Source: Thermodesulfobacteriota bacterium | Lineage (GTDB): Bacteria; Desulfobacterota; Binatia; Bin18 | Assembly (NCBI GenBank): GCA_964291405.2 | Contig: OZ219926.1 | Span: forward strand, 352,001-416,000 | DNA length: 64,000 nt | Direction: 5' to 3' | In this document: positions 9,827 through 41,478 of the stretch, one piece after another | How positions within the stretch are numbered: position 1 is the stretch's first letter | Layout of the letters: the number at the start of each line of letters is the position of its first letter | Program-made: the position numbers and the translations under genes | Notes under the pieces: model-generated | Seen by the model: only the letters and a program-made list of their open reading frames with translations | Told to the model about the DNA's origin: nothing | Database searches by the model: none

Positions 9827-9901
9827 ATATGCTCTCCTTTCATTTTTCCTCCGGCTGTATGTAGCATGCTCCGGCGGGGGGTGTCAGGTAGCCTCGTCTT
9901 C

Positions 9902-9985
9902 GGGTCTTTTGGGTTTCTTGGGTCTCAAAGACTCAATGGACTCAATAGACCCTGACTCAATAGACTCAATGGACTCAACAGACTC
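9902..9985. repeat. 9-bp tandem repeats (GACTCAATR) preceded by an inverted GGGTCT-type arm
   Basis: gggtctttt gggtttctt gggtct ... gactcaatg gactcaata gaccct gactcaata gactcaatg gactcaaca. Confidence 0.7.
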
Positions 9986-11109
9986 TATTCTCCTTTATGC
10001 GAAACGGACAGCCCAGCTCCTGTCCATCCGAGCATGCCGCCGGACAGAACCATGAGAGAAGAGAAGCCGTTTTGCTCTAACAAGTCCGCCGCTCTGACTG
10101 AGCGACGTTCTGTCTTTCATACAAGGACGACCGTTTGGGAACGACTAGGGGCCAGCTCGTTCATTCGTTTGTCTAAATCGGAGACCGGTATCAAGTGAGC
10201 CCCTTCAATATGACCAAGCTCGCCGGTAAATTCATCCAGGTCTCGCACGTCGAGTAGATAGGGTGGATTTTCTTCTCCCAGCATTTCGCTGAGCTGAAGG
10301 GGGGAGATGTCTTTCCACGTTTTCTCCAGGGGAATACGAGTCTGAAAGGGGAGGAGCAACAACTGCCCGAGGTGAAACGCATCTCGATAATATGACAGTC
10401 CGATCTCAAGGCCCAGTTGCCCTAAAGCCGGCTCGGCCCGGTAGGTTCCGCACAGCCGATCCCACCATGGGATAGAAAAGCCGAAGTTTGCATTGGTTTC
10501 CACCGTTCGTGTGGAATGATGAATCCGATGCATGTCTGGCGTAACCAGGAACCAACGTAGACGCCGGTCAAGCCTTTCAGGAAGATTGACATTACTGTGG
10601 TTAAAAACAGACGTGGCGTTCAGGATGATTTCAAAGGCGATAGCGGCCCAAGCAGGTGCCCCCAGCGCAATAATGACAACCGCTTTGTAGGCGAGAGAGA
10701 GAAAGACCTCGATGGGATGAAAACGGAGGCCGGTCGTGGCATCGACTCCAAGATCAGCATGATGGACCTGATGCACACGCCACACAAGGGGGACGGCATG
10801 GAAGAGGCGGTGCTGGATGTAGAGGGCGAAGTCGAGGACCAGGAGGGTGACCGGGACGGCGAACCAGAAAGGCGCTGACAGCCAATGCAGCAGTCCAATC
10901 TGGTGTTCCGCCGCAAAGGTGGCCGCCATATATGCCACGGCACCGACCAGAGCCCATACCAAAACCGCATTGAGCAGAGTAAGCCCCAAGTTCGTAGGCC
11001 AGCGTTCCTCTCTTCTTTGAGCAAGAATACGGCGCGGGGAGAGAAATTCCCAGGTTACCATTATGGAAAAGACCGCGAGAAAGGGCCAAAAGCGCATCCA
11101 CATTTCCAT
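9985..11109 (-). CDS. Sterol desaturase/fatty-acid hydroxylase fused to a rhodanese domain; putative selenoprotein (Sec331, UGA at 10117-10119)
   Basis: His boxes HRLFH, HQVHH, FNHSN and HRIHH. The rhodanese (LLDVRD, GHIEGA) reads through the TGA as VVLV-U-KTERRSVRAADLLEQNGFSSLMVLSGGMLGW to TAG at 9985. Confidence 0.85.
10087..10107 (-). promoter_or_regulatory. Putative bacterial SECIS hairpin
   Basis: mRNA UGA-9 nt-CGUCGCUC-AGUCA-GAGCGGCG: an 8-bp stem with G at the second loop position. Confidence 0.65.
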
Positions 11110-11235
11110 AACGAATACTCCTCGAAAAACGGTCGGATTCGCCCCTACCTTTTCCACCCTACGTTGGCTTTGTCTCCGGTTATGCAGTTGAGAGTTTTCT
11201 TGTGAAAGCCATAAATTCATGGCATAGCATATGTC

Positions 11236-11505
11236 ATGTCAACATCGTTCCACAATATGCACGTTCCCCTTTCGACCGATATCCATACTCGTCTCAAAGC
11301 AGAAGCAAAACGCTCCGGGCGGCCCGCAACTGTCCTGGTCCGGGAAGCTATTGAAACATGGCTTGAGGAACGGGAAAGAGCGGCGCTGCATCACGCTATT
11401 GCCCACTACGCCCAGGCGGTTGCCGGTACTTCCGACGACCTGGATGCGGATGTGGAAAAAGCTGCCGCCGAACATCTTCTTGCTAGTGAACGAGGCGAGG
11501 TGTGA
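11236..11505 (+). CDS. Ribbon-helix-helix (CopG-like) antitoxin
   Basis: HNMHVPL...LVREAIETWL; overlaps the MazF-like gene (GTGA). Confidence 0.75.
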   Translation: MSTSFHNMHVPLSTDIHTRLKAEAKRSGRPATVLVREAIETWLEERERAALHHAIAHYAQAVAGTSDDLDADVEKAAAEHLLASERGEV

Positions 11506-11849
11506 GACGTGGTGAGGTCTACTGGGCACATTTAACGCCTCGCTCCGGCTCGGAGCAGAGGGGTCGCTGGCCCGTTGTCATCGTGTCCCATGATGGATTC
11601 AATCAGGTACACGGCTGGCGTTCCGTCATTATCGTACCGCTCTCAACATCTCCTTCGCAACGGCAGCGCGGTCCGACAGCCGTTGCCCTGCCCAAAGGCG
11701 CAGCGGGGTTGAGTAAGGACGGCATCGCGTTATGCCATCAAGTCACGACGCTTGACCGGACGAAGTTGTCGCGCCGTATCGGTACGCTGCCAACGAACAT
11801 TATGGACACGATAGACGCCAGCCTCAAAGCTGCGTTGTCGCTGTGGTAA
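11502..11849 (+). CDS. MazF/PemK family toxin
   Basis: RRGEVYWA, GSEQRGRWPVVIVS and QVTTLDR motifs. Confidence 0.9.
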   Translation: MRRGEVYWAHLTPRSGSEQRGRWPVVIVSHDGFNQVHGWRSVIIVPLSTSPSQRQRGPTAVALPKGAAGLSKDGIALCHQVTTLDRTKLSRRIGTLPTNIMDTIDASLKAALSLW

Positions 11850-12414: not shown

Positions 12415-12741
12415 TCATATTTCCGGCTCACCCATCCAGGTCGGGAGGTCGCGCTGGCTATGGAGCACACGCCACACATCAATGTGGTCGTCCCGCTCGA
12501 CATAGAACACCAAGTAGGGGTAGCGCTTCAACGGCCAGGCGCGTAGGCCCGGCAAATCCAACTCCTGAGCGTAACGGGGTGCCCCCGACGCGGGATGCCG
12601 AGCGATATGCCGGTACGCCTTTTCCAGCGCGTCAATAAAGCCCAATCCGACCCGCTCTCCGCCCTCGTCCAGATAGTGATCGAGGGCTTGGTCAATATCG
12701 CGGTTGGCCAACGCCCGAGGAATGACCGGCTTGACGCTCAC
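12415..12741 (-). CDS. ParE/RelE family toxin
   Basis: ANRDIDQALDHY, RYPYLVFY and VWRVLHSQRD motifs. Confidence 0.88.
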   Translation of the reverse strand: MSVKPVIPRALANRDIDQALDHYLDEGGERVGLGFIDALEKAYRHIARHPASGAPRYAQELDLPGLRAWPLKRYPYLVFYVERDDHIDVWRVLHSQRDLPTWMGEPEI

Positions 12742-12989
12742 CCTTGCCGCCGTTGCTCCGCTCTTTTATGGAGCGTCTTGCGTAGCGTGTCGAAATAGGC
12801 CGCATCGGCAACGGACGATGGCTCAGACGCGGCTCCTGCGAGCAACAGAGCGCGTAAGTGCTGCCGGTCCTGGTCTTTGCGGATCAACTCACGGACATAC
12901 TCGCTACTGCTCCCGTAGCCGCGCTGCGCGACCTGCTCGTCTACAAAGGACTTGAGAGAGACTGGCAGGGAAATGTTCATAGTGCTCAT
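12738..12989 (-). CDS. ParD-like (CC2985) antitoxin
   Basis: MSTMNISLP...GYGSSSEYVRELIR; 4-nt overlap with the toxin gene. Confidence 0.88.
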   Translation of the reverse strand: MSTMNISLPVSLKSFVDEQVAQRGYGSSSEYVRELIRKDQDRQHLRALLLAGAASEPSSVADAAYFDTLRKTLHKRAEQRRQG

Positions 12990-13028
12990 CTGCCCAAGAT
13001 AGATTGTTTGGCAAAAATTGGCAAACTC

Positions 13029-13060
13029 GTAGGTCAGGTTAGTGAAGCGTAACCTGACCT
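13029..13060 (+). repeat. REP-like palindrome (GTAG family)
   Basis: GTAGGTCAGGTTA-gtgaagcg-TAACCTGACCT. Confidence 0.65.
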
Positions 13061-13073
13061 CCCCAGCCACGGC

Positions 13074-38237: not shown

Positions 38238-39209
38238 CTATCCGCCAAACGCATCCAGAACCGCGTTGACGCCCCGCTCATAATCGCCGTCAATCGCGGT
38301 CGGATACAGTATCACATATGACGCTCCAGCCCGCTCAAACTCGTCAAGCTTTTTCTGACAATCCTGCGGAGTACCCAGAGCGGCAACCTGTTCCGCCATT
38401 TCTTCGGATACAGCTTCGGCCGCCGCAGCCATGTCGTTCTTTTGGGCCGCCGCCATAATACCGGCAGCTTCTTTCTCAAAGCCCTGGCGAACAAAGAGCC
38501 GGTTGTAGTACGGCATGCGTCCGTAAAAAGACAAAGTTTGTCGCACGGAGCGGAGCGCAACCGCTTTATCTTCACACACACAACAGTGCATGATGAGCCC
38601 GATTTGGACATCCGTAGGTGAACGCCCAGCCTCTTGCGCGCCGGTCGCAATCCCCTCCACCACTTCGTGCAGCCCGTGCGGCGCGTAATTCAGCGGCAGG
38701 CTGCCATCGGCCAGCTCGCCGGTGAGGTGAATACTCTTGGGCGAAATACCGGCCAGATAAATGGGAATCTTGTTATCGGCTTTCATCGACGGCAGCCCAA
38801 GCGCCGCCGCAGCCTCATCTTTCCCGTCAAAGATGTTCCGCACCGCCTGTACATATTCCCGCAGGGCGGTCAAGGGTTTAGCCATATCTATACCGAACAT
38901 GCTGTTTAACGGGACATGACTGGTGCCCAGGCCGAGCAAGAGACGTCCCGGAGCAAGACGATCTACGGTCATGGCGTGCAGGGCCGCAATGAGCGGGTTA
39001 CGCAAATAGAGGTTGGTAATACCCGTGCCGACCTGGATTTCCGAGGTCACGGACGCCAGGTGCTGGGCGAGCGCCAAAGAGTCGGTAAACGATTCCGTCA
39101 CCAGAAAATTGCGCAGGCCACGCTCCTCTGCCTTTTTGACATAGGCGGTGTACTGATCCAAAGAACCTGGAGCCATATTGCTCATTATCAACATACCGGG
39201 AGTTGCCAT
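38238..39209 (-). CDS. Luciferase-like (LLM) flavin/F420-dependent oxidoreductase
   Basis: GRLLLGLG, PIYLAG and GELADG motifs. Confidence 0.88.
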   Translation of the reverse strand: MATPGMLIMSNMAPGSLDQYTAYVKKAEERGLRNFLVTESFTDSLALAQHLASVTSEIQVGTGITNLYLRNPLIAALHAMTVDRLAPGRLLLGLGTSHVPLNSMFGIDMAKPLTALREYVQAVRNIFDGKDEAAAALGLPSMKADNKIPIYLAGISPKSIHLTGELADGSLPLNYAPHGLHEVVEGIATGAQEAGRSPTDVQIGLIMHCCVCEDKAVALRSVRQTLSFYGRMPYYNRLFVRQGFEKEAAGIMAAAQKNDMAAAAEAVSEEMAEQVAALGTPQDCQKKLDEFERAGASYVILYPTAIDGDYERGVNAVLDAFGG

Positions 39210-39277
39210 ACCGAGTCCTCCTAAGGTGGGATCAACCCTTCAAATCACAAGCTATCGGGAGCCGCAATGGAATACGA

Positions 39278-40075
39278 CTATTCGTCAGAAAGGAGAGGCG
39301 GAGCGTTTTGCGCCAGCACGCCTAACTCTTCTTTGACCGCAACCCCACTCAGTTGTGCCCGCCGCATGAGTTCCGCCAGGCGCAGGATACGGTCTGCGGC
39401 TTCCTCAACCGCCACACCACGGGCATGAATGTTTGAGATCAGATTTCGCTCGGCGTCAGTATGGCCGCTCCGGGGACGATAGGCCATATATGCCGAGAGG
39501 CTCTCTGCGGTCAGCAGTCCCGGTCGTTCTCCAATGAGAAGAACCAGGACGGTTGGAGCAAGCAACTCGCCAATATCGTTCAGCACCCCGACGCGGCAGT
39601 AGCGGACAGCAAAGGGCCGCCCAAGGCGCCAGCCCCGTTTTTCCGCACCGGCATGGAGCAACGGCAATAGGGCGGGCACCTGTCTGACAACGGCAGCGAC
39701 CGAGAGTCCGTCACCGATCACAACCTGGAGATCGGCACCAACAGCGCAACGATTCATGATCTCCGCCTGGTCGTGCTCACTGATTCGGCGACCCAGGTCG
39801 GGTCGCATCAGGTATTCGGCTTTATTCCGCGCTTGGCTGGAGACGGTAAACATATCCCAGGCTTGTAGAAAGTCCAGCCCAAGACCTCGTTCCCAATCGA
39901 TATCGGTCTGCACCGCGTCCCTGGCTGAGGCATGGTCCGAACGCAGGCTGAGCTGCGTTTGCGTCCGATAAGCCGACCCGGACCGACCGGCAAATATCCG
40001 GGCTGGAGTCCGCGTCCGGATTGTAGCCAACGGGTCGTGAGTGTCCGATATTGCAGGTGTCTTCATTATTCTCAC
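39278..40075 (-). CDS. eutC: Ethanolamine ammonia-lyase small subunit
   Basis: TPARI, RPDLGR, DGLS, IGERPGL and RNLISNIH motifs. Confidence 0.93.
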   Translation of the reverse strand: MRIMKTPAISDTHDPLATIRTRTPARIFAGRSGSAYRTQTQLSLRSDHASARDAVQTDIDWERGLGLDFLQAWDMFTVSSQARNKAEYLMRPDLGRRISEHDQAEIMNRCAVGADLQVVIGDGLSVAAVVRQVPALLPLLHAGAEKRGWRLGRPFAVRYCRVGVLNDIGELLAPTVLVLLIGERPGLLTAESLSAYMAYRPRSGHTDAERNLISNIHARGVAVEEAADRILRLAELMRRAQLSGVAVKEELGVLAQNAPPLLSDE

Positions 40076-40077
40076 GG

Positions 40078-41478
40078 CTACGCAATCAGCTTGACCGTTT
40101 CTTCGAGACGTTGCCGAGCGGGACTCTCCGATGTCACCAGATTCCCGTTCCGCACGATGTCCATCCGCTCCAACCAGGCCAAAAATTCCGGGGCCGGCTG
40201 TAAACCAAAGAGTTGACGGGCGCCGAGTGCGTCGTGAAAACTGGTGGACTGATAGCTCAGCATCACATCATCAGCACACGGCACCCCCATAAAATAATTG
40301 CAGCCAGCCGCGGTTAATAGCAGCAGGAGATTATCCGCCGAGTTCTGGTCAGCCTGAGCGTGGTTGGTGTAACACACGTCACAACCCATGGGCAGTCCGA
40401 GCAGCTTACCCATGAAATGATCTTCCAAACCGGCCCGAACGATCTGGCGTTCATCATATAAGTACTCGGGGCCGATAAAGCCCACGACGGTATTGACAAG
40501 GAAGGGTGCAAACGCGCGGGCTACGCCGTAGGTTCGGGCTTCGAGCGTAAGTTGATCCACGCCGTGATGGGCATTGGCCGACAACGCACTCCCCTGCCCG
40601 GTTTCAAAATACATGACCGCATCACCCGCCCAGGCGACCTCACGACTTCGATGATGTTCGAGGACACGCTCACGGCCCTCACGCAGAATATTCAGATTGA
40701 TCCCAAAGCTCGTATTGGCGGCCTCCGTCCCGGCAAGAGACTGAAACAGCAGGTCCACGGGCGCGCCATGCTCAAGGCTGTCGAGCTGCGTGCTGATATG
40801 TGCCAGGCAGCACGATTGGGTTGGGATGTCATAGGCTTCAATCAGATGCTGAAGACCGTGCAGAATCTGGCTGACCGTTTCTACAGACTCGGTCGCCGGG
40901 TTCACGCCGATGACGGCATCTCCACACCCAAACAGCAAGCCATCAACCGCGGACAGGAGGATCCCACCGATATCATCGGCCGGATGATTGGGCTGCACCC
41001 GAATACCCAGGACGCCGGGCTGACCCATGGTATTGCGACAGCGCGTGATGTTACGGATTTTGCTGGCAGCCACAACCAAGTCTTTATTGCTCATCAGCTT
41101 TGTGACAGCCGCAGCGACCTCCGGGATAATGGCCCAGTGGAGCGCACCCAAACGAGCACCGTCCTGATCCTCGTCCAGCACATACTCGCGGAACTCGCCG
41201 ACCGTCAGATGGGCAAGCGGACGGAACGCCTCCTGGTCATGGGTCTCAAGAATCAGACGGCTCACTTCGTCTTGGACGGGCCCTATGAGGGGATTCGCCA
41301 CGATGTCCGACAACGGAATATCGGCCAACACCAGCTTGGCCGCAACCCGTTCCTGCTCGGAGGTGGCGGCAATCCCGGCTAACCGATCGCCCGACTTGTC
41401 TTCATTGGCCTTGGCAAGGACTTCACGCAGATCAGCAAAAGAAAAACGCTGGCCGCGAACGGTAGTAGAGTAGCTCAT
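40078..41478 (-). CDS. eutB: Ethanolamine ammonia-lyase large subunit
   Basis: QPNHP, YFETGQGS, VVGFIGPEYL and DVCYTNH motifs. Confidence 0.95.
   Translation of the reverse strand: MSYSTTVRGQRFSFADLREVLAKANEDKSGDRLAGIAATSEQERVAAKLVLADIPLSDIVANPLIGPVQDEVSRLILETHDQEAFRPLAHLTVGEFREYVLDEDQDGARLGALHWAIIPEVAAAVTKLMSNKDLVVAASKIRNITRCRNTMGQPGVLGIRVQPNHPADDIGGILLSAVDGLLFGCGDAVIGVNPATESVETVSQILHGLQHLIEAYDIPTQSCCLAHISTQLDSLEHGAPVDLLFQSLAGTEAANTSFGINLNILREGRERVLEHHRSREVAWAGDAVMYFETGQGSALSANAHHGVDQLTLEARTYGVARAFAPFLVNTVVGFIGPEYLYDERQIVRAGLEDHFMGKLLGLPMGCDVCYTNHAQADQNSADNLLLLLTAAGCNYFMGVPCADDVMLSYQSTSFHDALGARQLFGLQPAPEFLAWLERMDIVRNGNLVTSESPARQRLEETVKLIA

Follow-up and report, generated by a model that had tools for sequence, protein, structure and literature searches.

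Does an in-frame TGA codon at the active site of a rhodanese domain end the gene in which it lies, or is it decoded as selenocysteine (Sec)? The question is raised by a gene on the minus strand of a 64,000-nucleotide (nt) stretch of Candidatus Binatia DNA, called the window below (C3:352001–416000 of a 4.95-Mb genome in 3 contigs). Under translation table 11 its open reading frame (ORF) has 330 codons and closes with ...QTVVLV followed by TGA at 10119–10117. The frame past this TGA runs for 43 further codons (KTERRSVRAADLLEQNGFSSLMVLSGGMLGWTGAGLSVSHKGE) up to a TAG at 9987–9985, giving a read-through product of 374 residues, and the TGA stands where a rhodanese carries its catalytic cysteine (Cys). 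A preliminary description of the locus, made from the DNA letters alone, had reported both this position of the TGA and the continuation to a 374-amino-acid (aa) product, and both were confirmed. We conclude, with a probability of roughly 0.88, that the gene (11109..9985) encodes a genuine 374-residue selenoprotein in which an FA_hydroxylase domain is joined to a Sec-containing rhodanese.

The extent of the gene was set by comparison with its relatives. Homologues and relatives share a start at MEMW/MEIL, equivalent to 11109 here, leaving a longer ORF call starting at 11220 unsupported. The frames of close relatives end within a few codons of the window's TAG, and several read ...HKADTT and then TGA. 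Between this TAG and the next gene, at 9897–9985, lie two imperfect 9-nt tandem repeat arrays, with units TCTTGGGTC and CTCAATAGA in 3.2 and 7.3 copies, and contigs from other sequencing runs show a 15-nt deletion and a 3-nt insertion in this region.

Pfam analysis of the read-through product revealed FA_hydroxylase (PF04116, 103.2 bits, cut-off 31) and Rhodanese (PF00581, 55.2 bits, cut-off 22.2) and no Lactamase_B domain, with the TGA falling inside the PF00581 match. The N-terminal part carries the histidine boxes HxxxH (H100/H104), HxxHH (H113/H116/H117) and HxxHH (H194/H197/H198), together with H131 and H171, and all of these histidines are invariant among 16 sequences. The Pfam domains and the invariant histidines together back the earlier proposal of a four-His-box FA-hydroxylase-type domain fused to a rhodanese. 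The rhodanese part aligned to solved single-domain rhodaneses without gaps around the active-site loop; the nearest were the rhodanese domains of persulfide dioxygenase–rhodanese fusions (3tp9, 5ve3/5ve4), followed by 6mxv, 1yt8 and YgaP. In BpPRF, the fusion from Burkholderia phytofirmans, the segment C-RAGGR-S (...VTVCRAGGRS...) aligned gap-free to U331-KTERR-S; we infer from the match of positions that this Cys is C314, which PDB entry titles name as the site of an inactivating mutation. For the N-terminal domain, a sequence search of the PDB with an E limit of 0.01 yielded no relative of known structure. An AlphaFold2 model built from a 48-row alignment had a mean predicted local distance difference test (pLDDT) score of 93.3 and a predicted template modelling (pTM) score of 0.78, and our reading of its helices, combined with the positive-inside rule, predicts that the His boxes and the rhodanese lie on the same, cytoplasmic, side. 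As judged from sequence, the architecture is an N-terminal membrane domain of the FA_hydroxylase fold followed by a C-terminal single-domain rhodanese with a putative Sec nucleophile in a six-residue loop.

To follow the catalytic codon among relatives, we collected 160 DNA loci from metagenome and genome collections and 30 from a sample of the phylum, and searched all of them with residues 263–374. In the 42 loci that could be aligned, the catalytic column held TGA in 35, TGC in 5 and TGT in 2, and never TAA or TAG, so that a homologue check proposed at the outset (Cys or UGA at this column) gave TGA in 35 of 42 cases and Cys in the rest. The rhodanese parts of the 35 TGA loci span 32–100% identity, a set that includes two loci of poor quality (L044, with an extra stop and 32% identity, and L138, which is frameshifted). 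Five of the seven Cys codons belong to true counterparts (TGC in L164, L173, L157 and L178; TGT in L105), all of them genes in which the rhodanese is attached to a VTT domain and which adjoin an FA_hydroxylase gene; the other two come from unrelated rhodaneses, one in an ArsR–rhodanese regulator (L130) and one in a gene on the opposite strand (L160). In the genome that carries L138 (G404), selA is likewise broken, being split into four adjacent pieces, and both defects look like assembly indel errors rather than biology.

Close relatives showed that the sequence beyond the TGA evolves as coding sequence. All 13 Candidatus Binatia genomes that are 85–95% identical to the window keep the TGA, follow it with the open, conserved KTERRS... 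frame and retain the full-length read-through frame. In these 13 genomes plus the window, variable columns in codons 332–370 were distributed over the first, second and third codon positions as 8/2/18, compared with 73/51/177 upstream, and the synonymous share of codon differences was 68% downstream of the TGA and 60% upstream; beyond the TAG every compared column varies. Contigs of three runs from three studies also cover 10084–10129 and list no change at 10117–10119 while listing the neighbouring synonymous change 10120 T>C, in a comparison that has 34 further differences not displayed and in which one run (X2) may be the source sample. Near-identical contigs are present in two sponge-metagenome runs.

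Two further observations concern the wider set of relatives. Three loci of one family in the phylum sample (G279:C1:680434-681531, G129:C48:110-1222 and G221:C60:52307-53431) match residues ~4–366 at 36–38% identity and contain 2–3 in-frame stops inside frames of 553–578 aa; they may be more distant Sec-containing fusions. At residue 220 (window 10450–10452, in WWDRLCGTYR), 35 of 35 Sec loci have Cys and 5 of 5 Cys-form loci have Leu or Phe. We considered this residue as a resolving Cys and dropped the idea, as a Cys also stands there in 65 of 150 loci without a nearby rhodanese; the residue is probably a clade marker.

Protein databases hold the same gene in shortened form. A search of 5.8 billion protein clusters revealed that 35 of the 120 best homologues, which are all the direct fusions in this set, stop precisely where position 330 aligns, immediately before the catalytic residue; 83 are FA_hydroxylase-only proteins of ~272–278 aa, and 2 (P0047 and P0050) diverge earlier in a frameshift-like manner. 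The expectation that standard pipelines would annotate the protein as truncated is borne out by these 35 entries. When 1.84 billion cluster representatives were searched, the best 150 matches included no FA_hydroxylase protein that continues past residue 330, and the only representative with full coverage also ends at the catalytic residue. These 150 matches contained no direct FA_hydroxylase–rhodanese fusion with Cys, where a full-length Cys homologue would be expected to rank. Because the homologues are truncated in this way, their rhodanese domains are invisible to domain-based surveys.

The genome encodes the means to decode UGA as Sec. All four genes whose presence had been put forward as a check were found: selA (524.7 bits), selB (a 645-aa frame with a SelB winged-helix domain scoring 79.9 bits), selD (308.1 bits, cut-off 125) and selC, a tRNA-Sec with anticodon tca ~250 nt from the selA match. 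A pyridine nucleotide-disulfide oxidoreductase domain stands N-terminal to selD in one 755-aa fusion ORF that has no in-frame stop (L003:262-2529; G000:C3 about 38325–40592). TGA is at the same time an ordinary stop here, ending 454 of 1242 ORFs of at least 400 aa, which excludes a global reassignment of the codon. Five of five further genomes with Sec forms have selA; so do three of four genomes with Cys forms, and the capacity for Sec therefore does not dictate its use at this position. Outside the window the genome holds a second candidate Sec-rhodanese on the minus strand (C3 about 3329123–3329872), a two-domain sulfurtransferase with a TGA at the catalytic position (~3329221, ...VVTY-U-QGGIRA...), whose UxxG motif fits published Sec-rhodanese forms. 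The formate dehydrogenase alpha homologues found at four loci (L197–L200, G000:C3) show no in-frame stop and therefore yield no reference Sec insertion sequence (SECIS); this enzyme, normally the flagship selenoprotein, seems to be of the Cys type in a genome that decodes Sec.

The preliminary description had also pointed to a SECIS-like hairpin, and an 8-base-pair (bp) stem with a 5-nt, G-containing loop is indeed present 9 nt past the UGA and belongs to the minimum-free-energy fold. We scored hairpins by a positional rule requiring a contiguous stem of at least 6 bp, a loop of 3–7 nt with a G in its first two places, and a loop start 12–25 nt after the UGA, these numeric limits being general background. 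The rule finds a hairpin in 28 of 34 Sec forms and in 0 of 5 Cys forms. Among ordinary TGA stops, the same rule gave a hairpin of at least 8 bp after 18 of 1398 TGA-ended ORFs of at least 200 aa (1.3%). A genome-wide scan, which was no selenoproteome survey, recovered both rhodanese candidates among 18 matches, the second with the same 9-nt spacer and 8-bp stem and the loop GGC; four other matches with long downstream frames were translated and did not resemble coding read-through. Across 31 distinct sequences, 87.1% of pair cells in the stem are paired, compared with 29–54% in controls with slid partners. The Arg that closes the stem is encoded in most Sec forms by AGA, a codon that makes up 4.2% of Arg codons in this genome, a point weakened by shared ancestry.

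Several observations on the hairpin count against the selenoprotein reading or lessen the help it gives. Six of the 34 Sec forms fail the strict rule, none of the 8 pairs shows two-sided, compensatory changes among the 31 distinct sequences, and the covariation score lies below the shuffle mean. The stem is encoded in the codons of a conserved R-S-V-R-A-A peptide, and when the peptides of three lineages were recoded synonymously with this genome's codon usage, 7%, 7% and 1.6% of trials gave a stem at least as long as the observed one. Recoding also reached the observed folding energy in 5–88% of trials for Sec forms (a fraction of 0.05 for the window and 0.09–0.88 for nine others), as it did for Cys forms (0.06–0.98); we therefore dropped folding energy, which does not separate Sec from Cys forms, and used the positional rule instead. 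On these recoding results, much of the hairpin could be a by-product of the conserved Arg/Ala-rich peptide. A 76-nt stretch folded weakly better than its shuffles (z −1.26, with 20 of 200 shuffles as good), and a search of 9950–10250 at E up to 10 gave no Rfam family match apart from two chance-level, unrelated ones. Bacterial SECIS elements are described as hairpins on the 3′ side of the UGA whose small apical loop includes a G (PMC1088965, in the part used here), and the hairpin is plausibly such an element. We treat it as supporting evidence and not as independent proof, because it lacks compensatory changes and overlaps conserved codons. What stands of the original claim is the hairpin itself and its retention in 28 of 34 Sec forms; the independent support that it was taken to lend is weaker than had been implied.

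A classical comparative signature of a Sec/Cys pair, read from aligned sequences, makes it very probable that the TGA is decoded as Sec. This reading is drawn from the TGA/Cys column, the open and conserved downstream frame, the machinery and the independent assemblies taken together, and the TGA/Cys column, the machinery and the coding constraint all support the interpretation first proposed, a selenoprotein with Sec at the rhodanese catalytic position. On this model, the ribosome would not terminate at the UGA of codon 331; SelB, together with Sec-tRNA(Sec) and directed by the hairpin beginning 9 nt further on, would insert Sec, and translation would proceed for 43 codons to the TAG.

The chief alternative is that the TGA is a real stop, the product being an FA_hydroxylase of 330 residues that bears an inactive half of a rhodanese, and the last 43 codons the decaying remains of a gene struck by a nonsense mutation. 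It is the product that table 11 yields and that gene callers gave for the 35 database homologues, and the want of compensatory support for the hairpin speaks in its favour. We nevertheless consider it very improbable, as the stop is TGA in 35 of 35 cases across lineages, down to ~45% identity, and sits exactly on the catalytic residue, a position that Cys holds in other lineages. A remnant would, moreover, gather stops and frameshifts, whereas the downstream frame is open and its variation in 14 genomes is biased to third positions. That the TGA is a sequencing or assembly error for TGC or TGT, which had been named as a possible refutation, is effectively refuted: the TGA recurs in 13 Binatia genomes assembled independently and in 21 loci at greater distance, and the contigs of three runs list no change at the codon. 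Nothing was found in favour of such an error; the one raw-read run compared with the stretch (X21) gave 0 reads on it.

Given a Sec-rhodanese, the question becomes what it does beside an FA_hydroxylase domain, and here gene architecture is informative. The rhodanese occurs in three arrangements. In the window, in the 13 Binatia genomes and in L038, L039 and L043 it is fused to FA_hydroxylase. Elsewhere it forms the end of a VTT/DedA-type membrane protein whose own gene lies immediately downstream (with Sec in L131 and L133 and with Cys in L164, L173 and L105), or the protein is reduced to a single transmembrane helix and the rhodanese (L042 and L134). One protein carries FA_hydroxylase and VTT in a single chain (P0022), and in another the rhodanese precedes FA_hydroxylase (P0146). 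The linker RRWRRPGK is found both after the last VTT helix and ahead of the rhodanese in fused L038; this shared sequence suggests that the direct fusion may have arisen by loss of the VTT domain. A rhodanese together with this FA_hydroxylase subfamily is a recurrent module, either fused or split by a VTT membrane domain, and is new here.

A regulator combining an ArsR-type helix-turn-helix with a rhodanese domain adjoins the FA_hydroxylase gene in 29 of the 190 loci, fused L038 included (13 with Sec, 2 with Cys and 14 without a nearby rhodanese partner), and a DsrE gene lies near it in 11 of 190. These recurrent neighbours are probably of sulfur-relay and persulfide-sensor types. In L131, the region downstream of the VTT–Sec-rhodanese gene (L131:4379-5596) holds a second ArsR-family regulator and an S-adenosylmethionine (SAM) methyltransferase (Methyltransf_31); L117 likewise has a SAM methyltransferase, ahead of its fused gene.

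We tentatively propose, by analogy, a role for the Sec or Cys rhodanese as a carrier of sulfane sulfur or selenium on the inner side of the membrane, in cooperation with the di-iron oxygenase. The Sec residue (Cys in other lineages) would accept sulfane sulfur or selenium there as a Se–S intermediate, and the rhodanese would act as a unit with the di-iron oxygenase domain, making the protein a membrane-bound analogue of the soluble persulfide dioxygenase–rhodanese fusions; in many relatives the system would adjoin a probable persulfide-sensing ArsR–rhodanese regulator. This functional reading draws on domain chemistry and gene context, and it is the context (ArsR–rhodanese, DsrE and the VTT or fused module) that leads us to favour sulfane-sulfur handling over ordinary lipid hydroxylation. 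The chemistry suggested in the preliminary description, lipid sulfuration or selenation or redox coupling, is conjectural, and the context speaks for the handling of sulfane sulfur or persulfides in its place. Four points weigh against it: the window and the 13 close relatives have no ArsR–rhodanese, VTT or DsrE gene beside the gene; most of the 160 FA_hydroxylase relatives are without a nearby rhodanese; in NCBIfam the N-terminal domain comes closest to a lipid hydroxylase, though far below that model's cut-off; and fusions of the same domain to PAS–histidine kinase or PAS–GGDEF modules could point to sensing or signalling input rather than catalysis.

The third point leads to a possible alternative, in which the protein is a real selenoprotein whose N-terminal domain is an ordinary OlsE-like lipid hydroxylase or desaturase and whose Sec-rhodanese is a regulatory or reductant-delivering appendage with no role in sulfur trafficking. 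Among curated families, residues 10–256 are best matched by the ornithine lipid hydroxylase OlsE (NF052566; E 6.2e-23), PF04116 is mostly a family of lipid enzymes, and the partner in unfused forms is a VTT/DedA-type membrane domain, a family linked to lipid transport. The OlsE match, however, reaches 81.6 bits against an equivalog cut-off of 475, the recurrent neighbours are ArsR–rhodanese (29 loci) and DsrE (11) genes and not genes of lipid synthesis, and we know of no rhodanese that serves as electron donor for a di-iron enzyme.

The fourth point bears on an unlikely alternative, in which the protein is again a real selenoprotein and the FA_hydroxylase-fold domain senses O2, iron, redox state or sulfide at the membrane instead of acting as an enzyme, with the rhodanese as one of several alternative outputs or partners. 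Relatives from the same subfamily continue into PAS and HisKA/HATPase domains (P0131, P0138, P0142, P0147 and P0151) or into PAS and GGDEF domains (P0136 and P0155), so that the domain takes the usual position of an input domain; the kinase- or GGDEF-fused relatives (these and P0134) share 42–47% identity over residues 4–260. All iron-ligand histidines are nevertheless retained, as they would be in a catalyst, a rhodanese is no signalling output, and the literature searched contained no sensor of this kind.

A broader version of the sulfur proposal, which we regard as doubtful, would make the FA_hydroxylase subfamily the O2-reactive core of an unrecognised membrane system for sulfane sulfur or selenium and not a lipid hydroxylase. 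The Sec or Cys rhodanese, fused or on a VTT/DedA-type protein, would deliver sulfur or selenium to the di-iron site; an ArsR–rhodanese persulfide sensor would control the system and DsrE-type carriers would feed it; and the di-iron domain would serve in addition as a membrane sensor of redox state or sulfide, coupled to histidine-kinase and diguanylate-cyclase outputs. If this were true, the window protein would be the first case of a selenoenzyme partnered by a membrane di-iron oxygenase.

The surroundings of the gene in the window are of other kinds. Downstream lies a gene of SMP-30/gluconolactonase-like type, and upstream are two toxin–antitoxin pairs and then methionine-synthesis genes (Table 1). 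In L117, which is 95% identical, a DUF4238 protein and the SAM methyltransferase noted above take the place of the toxin–antitoxin pairs, and the upstream flank is therefore variable.

Table 1. Positions in the window of the putative selenoprotein gene, its parts and the nearby toxin–antitoxin pairs
Feature	Position	Strand	Remarks
Whole gene	9985..11109	minus	ATG 11109 to TAG 9987-9985, 374 codons, one in-frame UGA (probable Sec331)
Shine-Dalgarno-like GAGGAG	11118..11123	minus	8 nt ahead of ATG
Start codon ATG	11109-11107	minus	homologues begin at matching MEMW/MEIL position
FA_hydroxylase domain (membrane di-iron, His-box), residues 87-222	10444..10851	minus	Pfam PF04116, E 1.9e-29
Rhodanese domain, residues 270-364	10018..10302	minus	Pfam PF00581, E 1e-14; PDB rhodanese matches
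UGA, probably read as selenocysteine (U331)	10117..10119	minus	catalytic-Cys position, rhodanese loop U-K-T-E-R-R-S
SECIS-like hairpin, 8-bp stem, loop AGUCA	10087..10107	minus	9 nt after UGA
Hairpin parts	10107-10100; 10099-10095; 10094-10087	minus	arm CGUCGCUC; loop AGUCA; arm GAGCGGCG
Probable true stop TAG	9985..9987	minus	third-position-biased conservation stops there
Type II toxin-antitoxin pair	11236-11849	plus	PemK/MazF toxin and small upstream ORF
Type II toxin-antitoxin pair	12415-13070	minus	ParE and ParD

Sec-rhodaneses as such have been reported since 2005, with COG0607 and COG2897 sulfurtransferase selenoproteins in surveys of the Sargasso Sea and Global Ocean Sampling (GOS) data (PMC1088965 and PMC2398784, in the parts consulted), and Table 1 of a 2026 review has five Sec-rhodanese forms among 119 prokaryotic families (PMC13188914). 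The window protein resembles the known ones, as they are described in these parts, in that Sec replaces the catalytic Cys, Cys homologues exist and the hairpin has a small, G-containing apical loop. It differs in its motif, U-[KNRS]-x-E-x-R-S (UKTE/UNKE), from UxxS, UxxG, CxU, UxxG and UxxxxU, given there for forms 1–5 (PMC13188914), and in its distance from the only curated Sec-rhodanese model that it matched, NF041203 (form 3), at 34.5 bits against a cut-off of 115. No form listed in the portion of that review covered here is described as fused to FA_hydroxylase or VTT, a distinction that follows the descriptions of the forms and not their sequences; the terms 'desaturase' and 'fatty acid hydroxylase' are absent from its main text, and the architecture was not found in the main text and first third of the table section of this 119-family inventory (PMC13188914). 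The selenoprotein architecture of these Candidatus Binatia bacteria is thus an addition to the searched portion of the inventory.

Among proteins of known structure, the closest parallel is with the persulfide dioxygenase–rhodanese fusions, BpPRF (5ve3/5ve4) and 3tp9, in which an iron oxygenase is likewise joined to a C-terminal single-domain rhodanese; the rhodanese parts share 37% identity over 89 columns (Foldseek) and match by sequence with E 1.5e-10. Their oxygenase, however, is soluble and of the metallo-beta-lactamase fold, whereas here it is a membrane domain of the His-box di-iron fold, and their nucleophile is Cys where the window protein has a probable Sec. That the window protein works as they do is a hypothesis by analogy. 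YgaP of E. coli is also a rhodanese held at the inner membrane, and its domain matches (2moi, 5hbl) with E about 1e-5. YgaV is the ArsR-type partner of YgaP, and an ArsR-family regulator adjoins the gene in many relatives here. In contrast to the window protein, YgaP has a simple C-terminal membrane anchor, a Cys and no oxygenase or VTT domain, and the regulator in the relatives, unlike YgaV, carries a rhodanese domain of its own.

With the enzymes of the FA_hydroxylase superfamily (PF04116, for example OlsE, NF052566), the window protein has the fold family and the His-box set in common; it stays far from the OlsE cut-off, and no member with a rhodanese or Sec appeared in the literature searched. 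Those searches, to which supplements were outside the scope, gave no link of FA_hydroxylase/sterol-desaturase-family proteins with Sec or rhodanese. Sec-rhodaneses are known, then, and their fusion to FA_hydroxylase is in no paper searched. The finding links a membrane di-iron oxygenase fold with the components of sulfur relay, namely rhodanese, DsrE and ArsR-type persulfide regulators, and the natural Sec and Cys, fused and split versions of the module form a ready-made experimental series.

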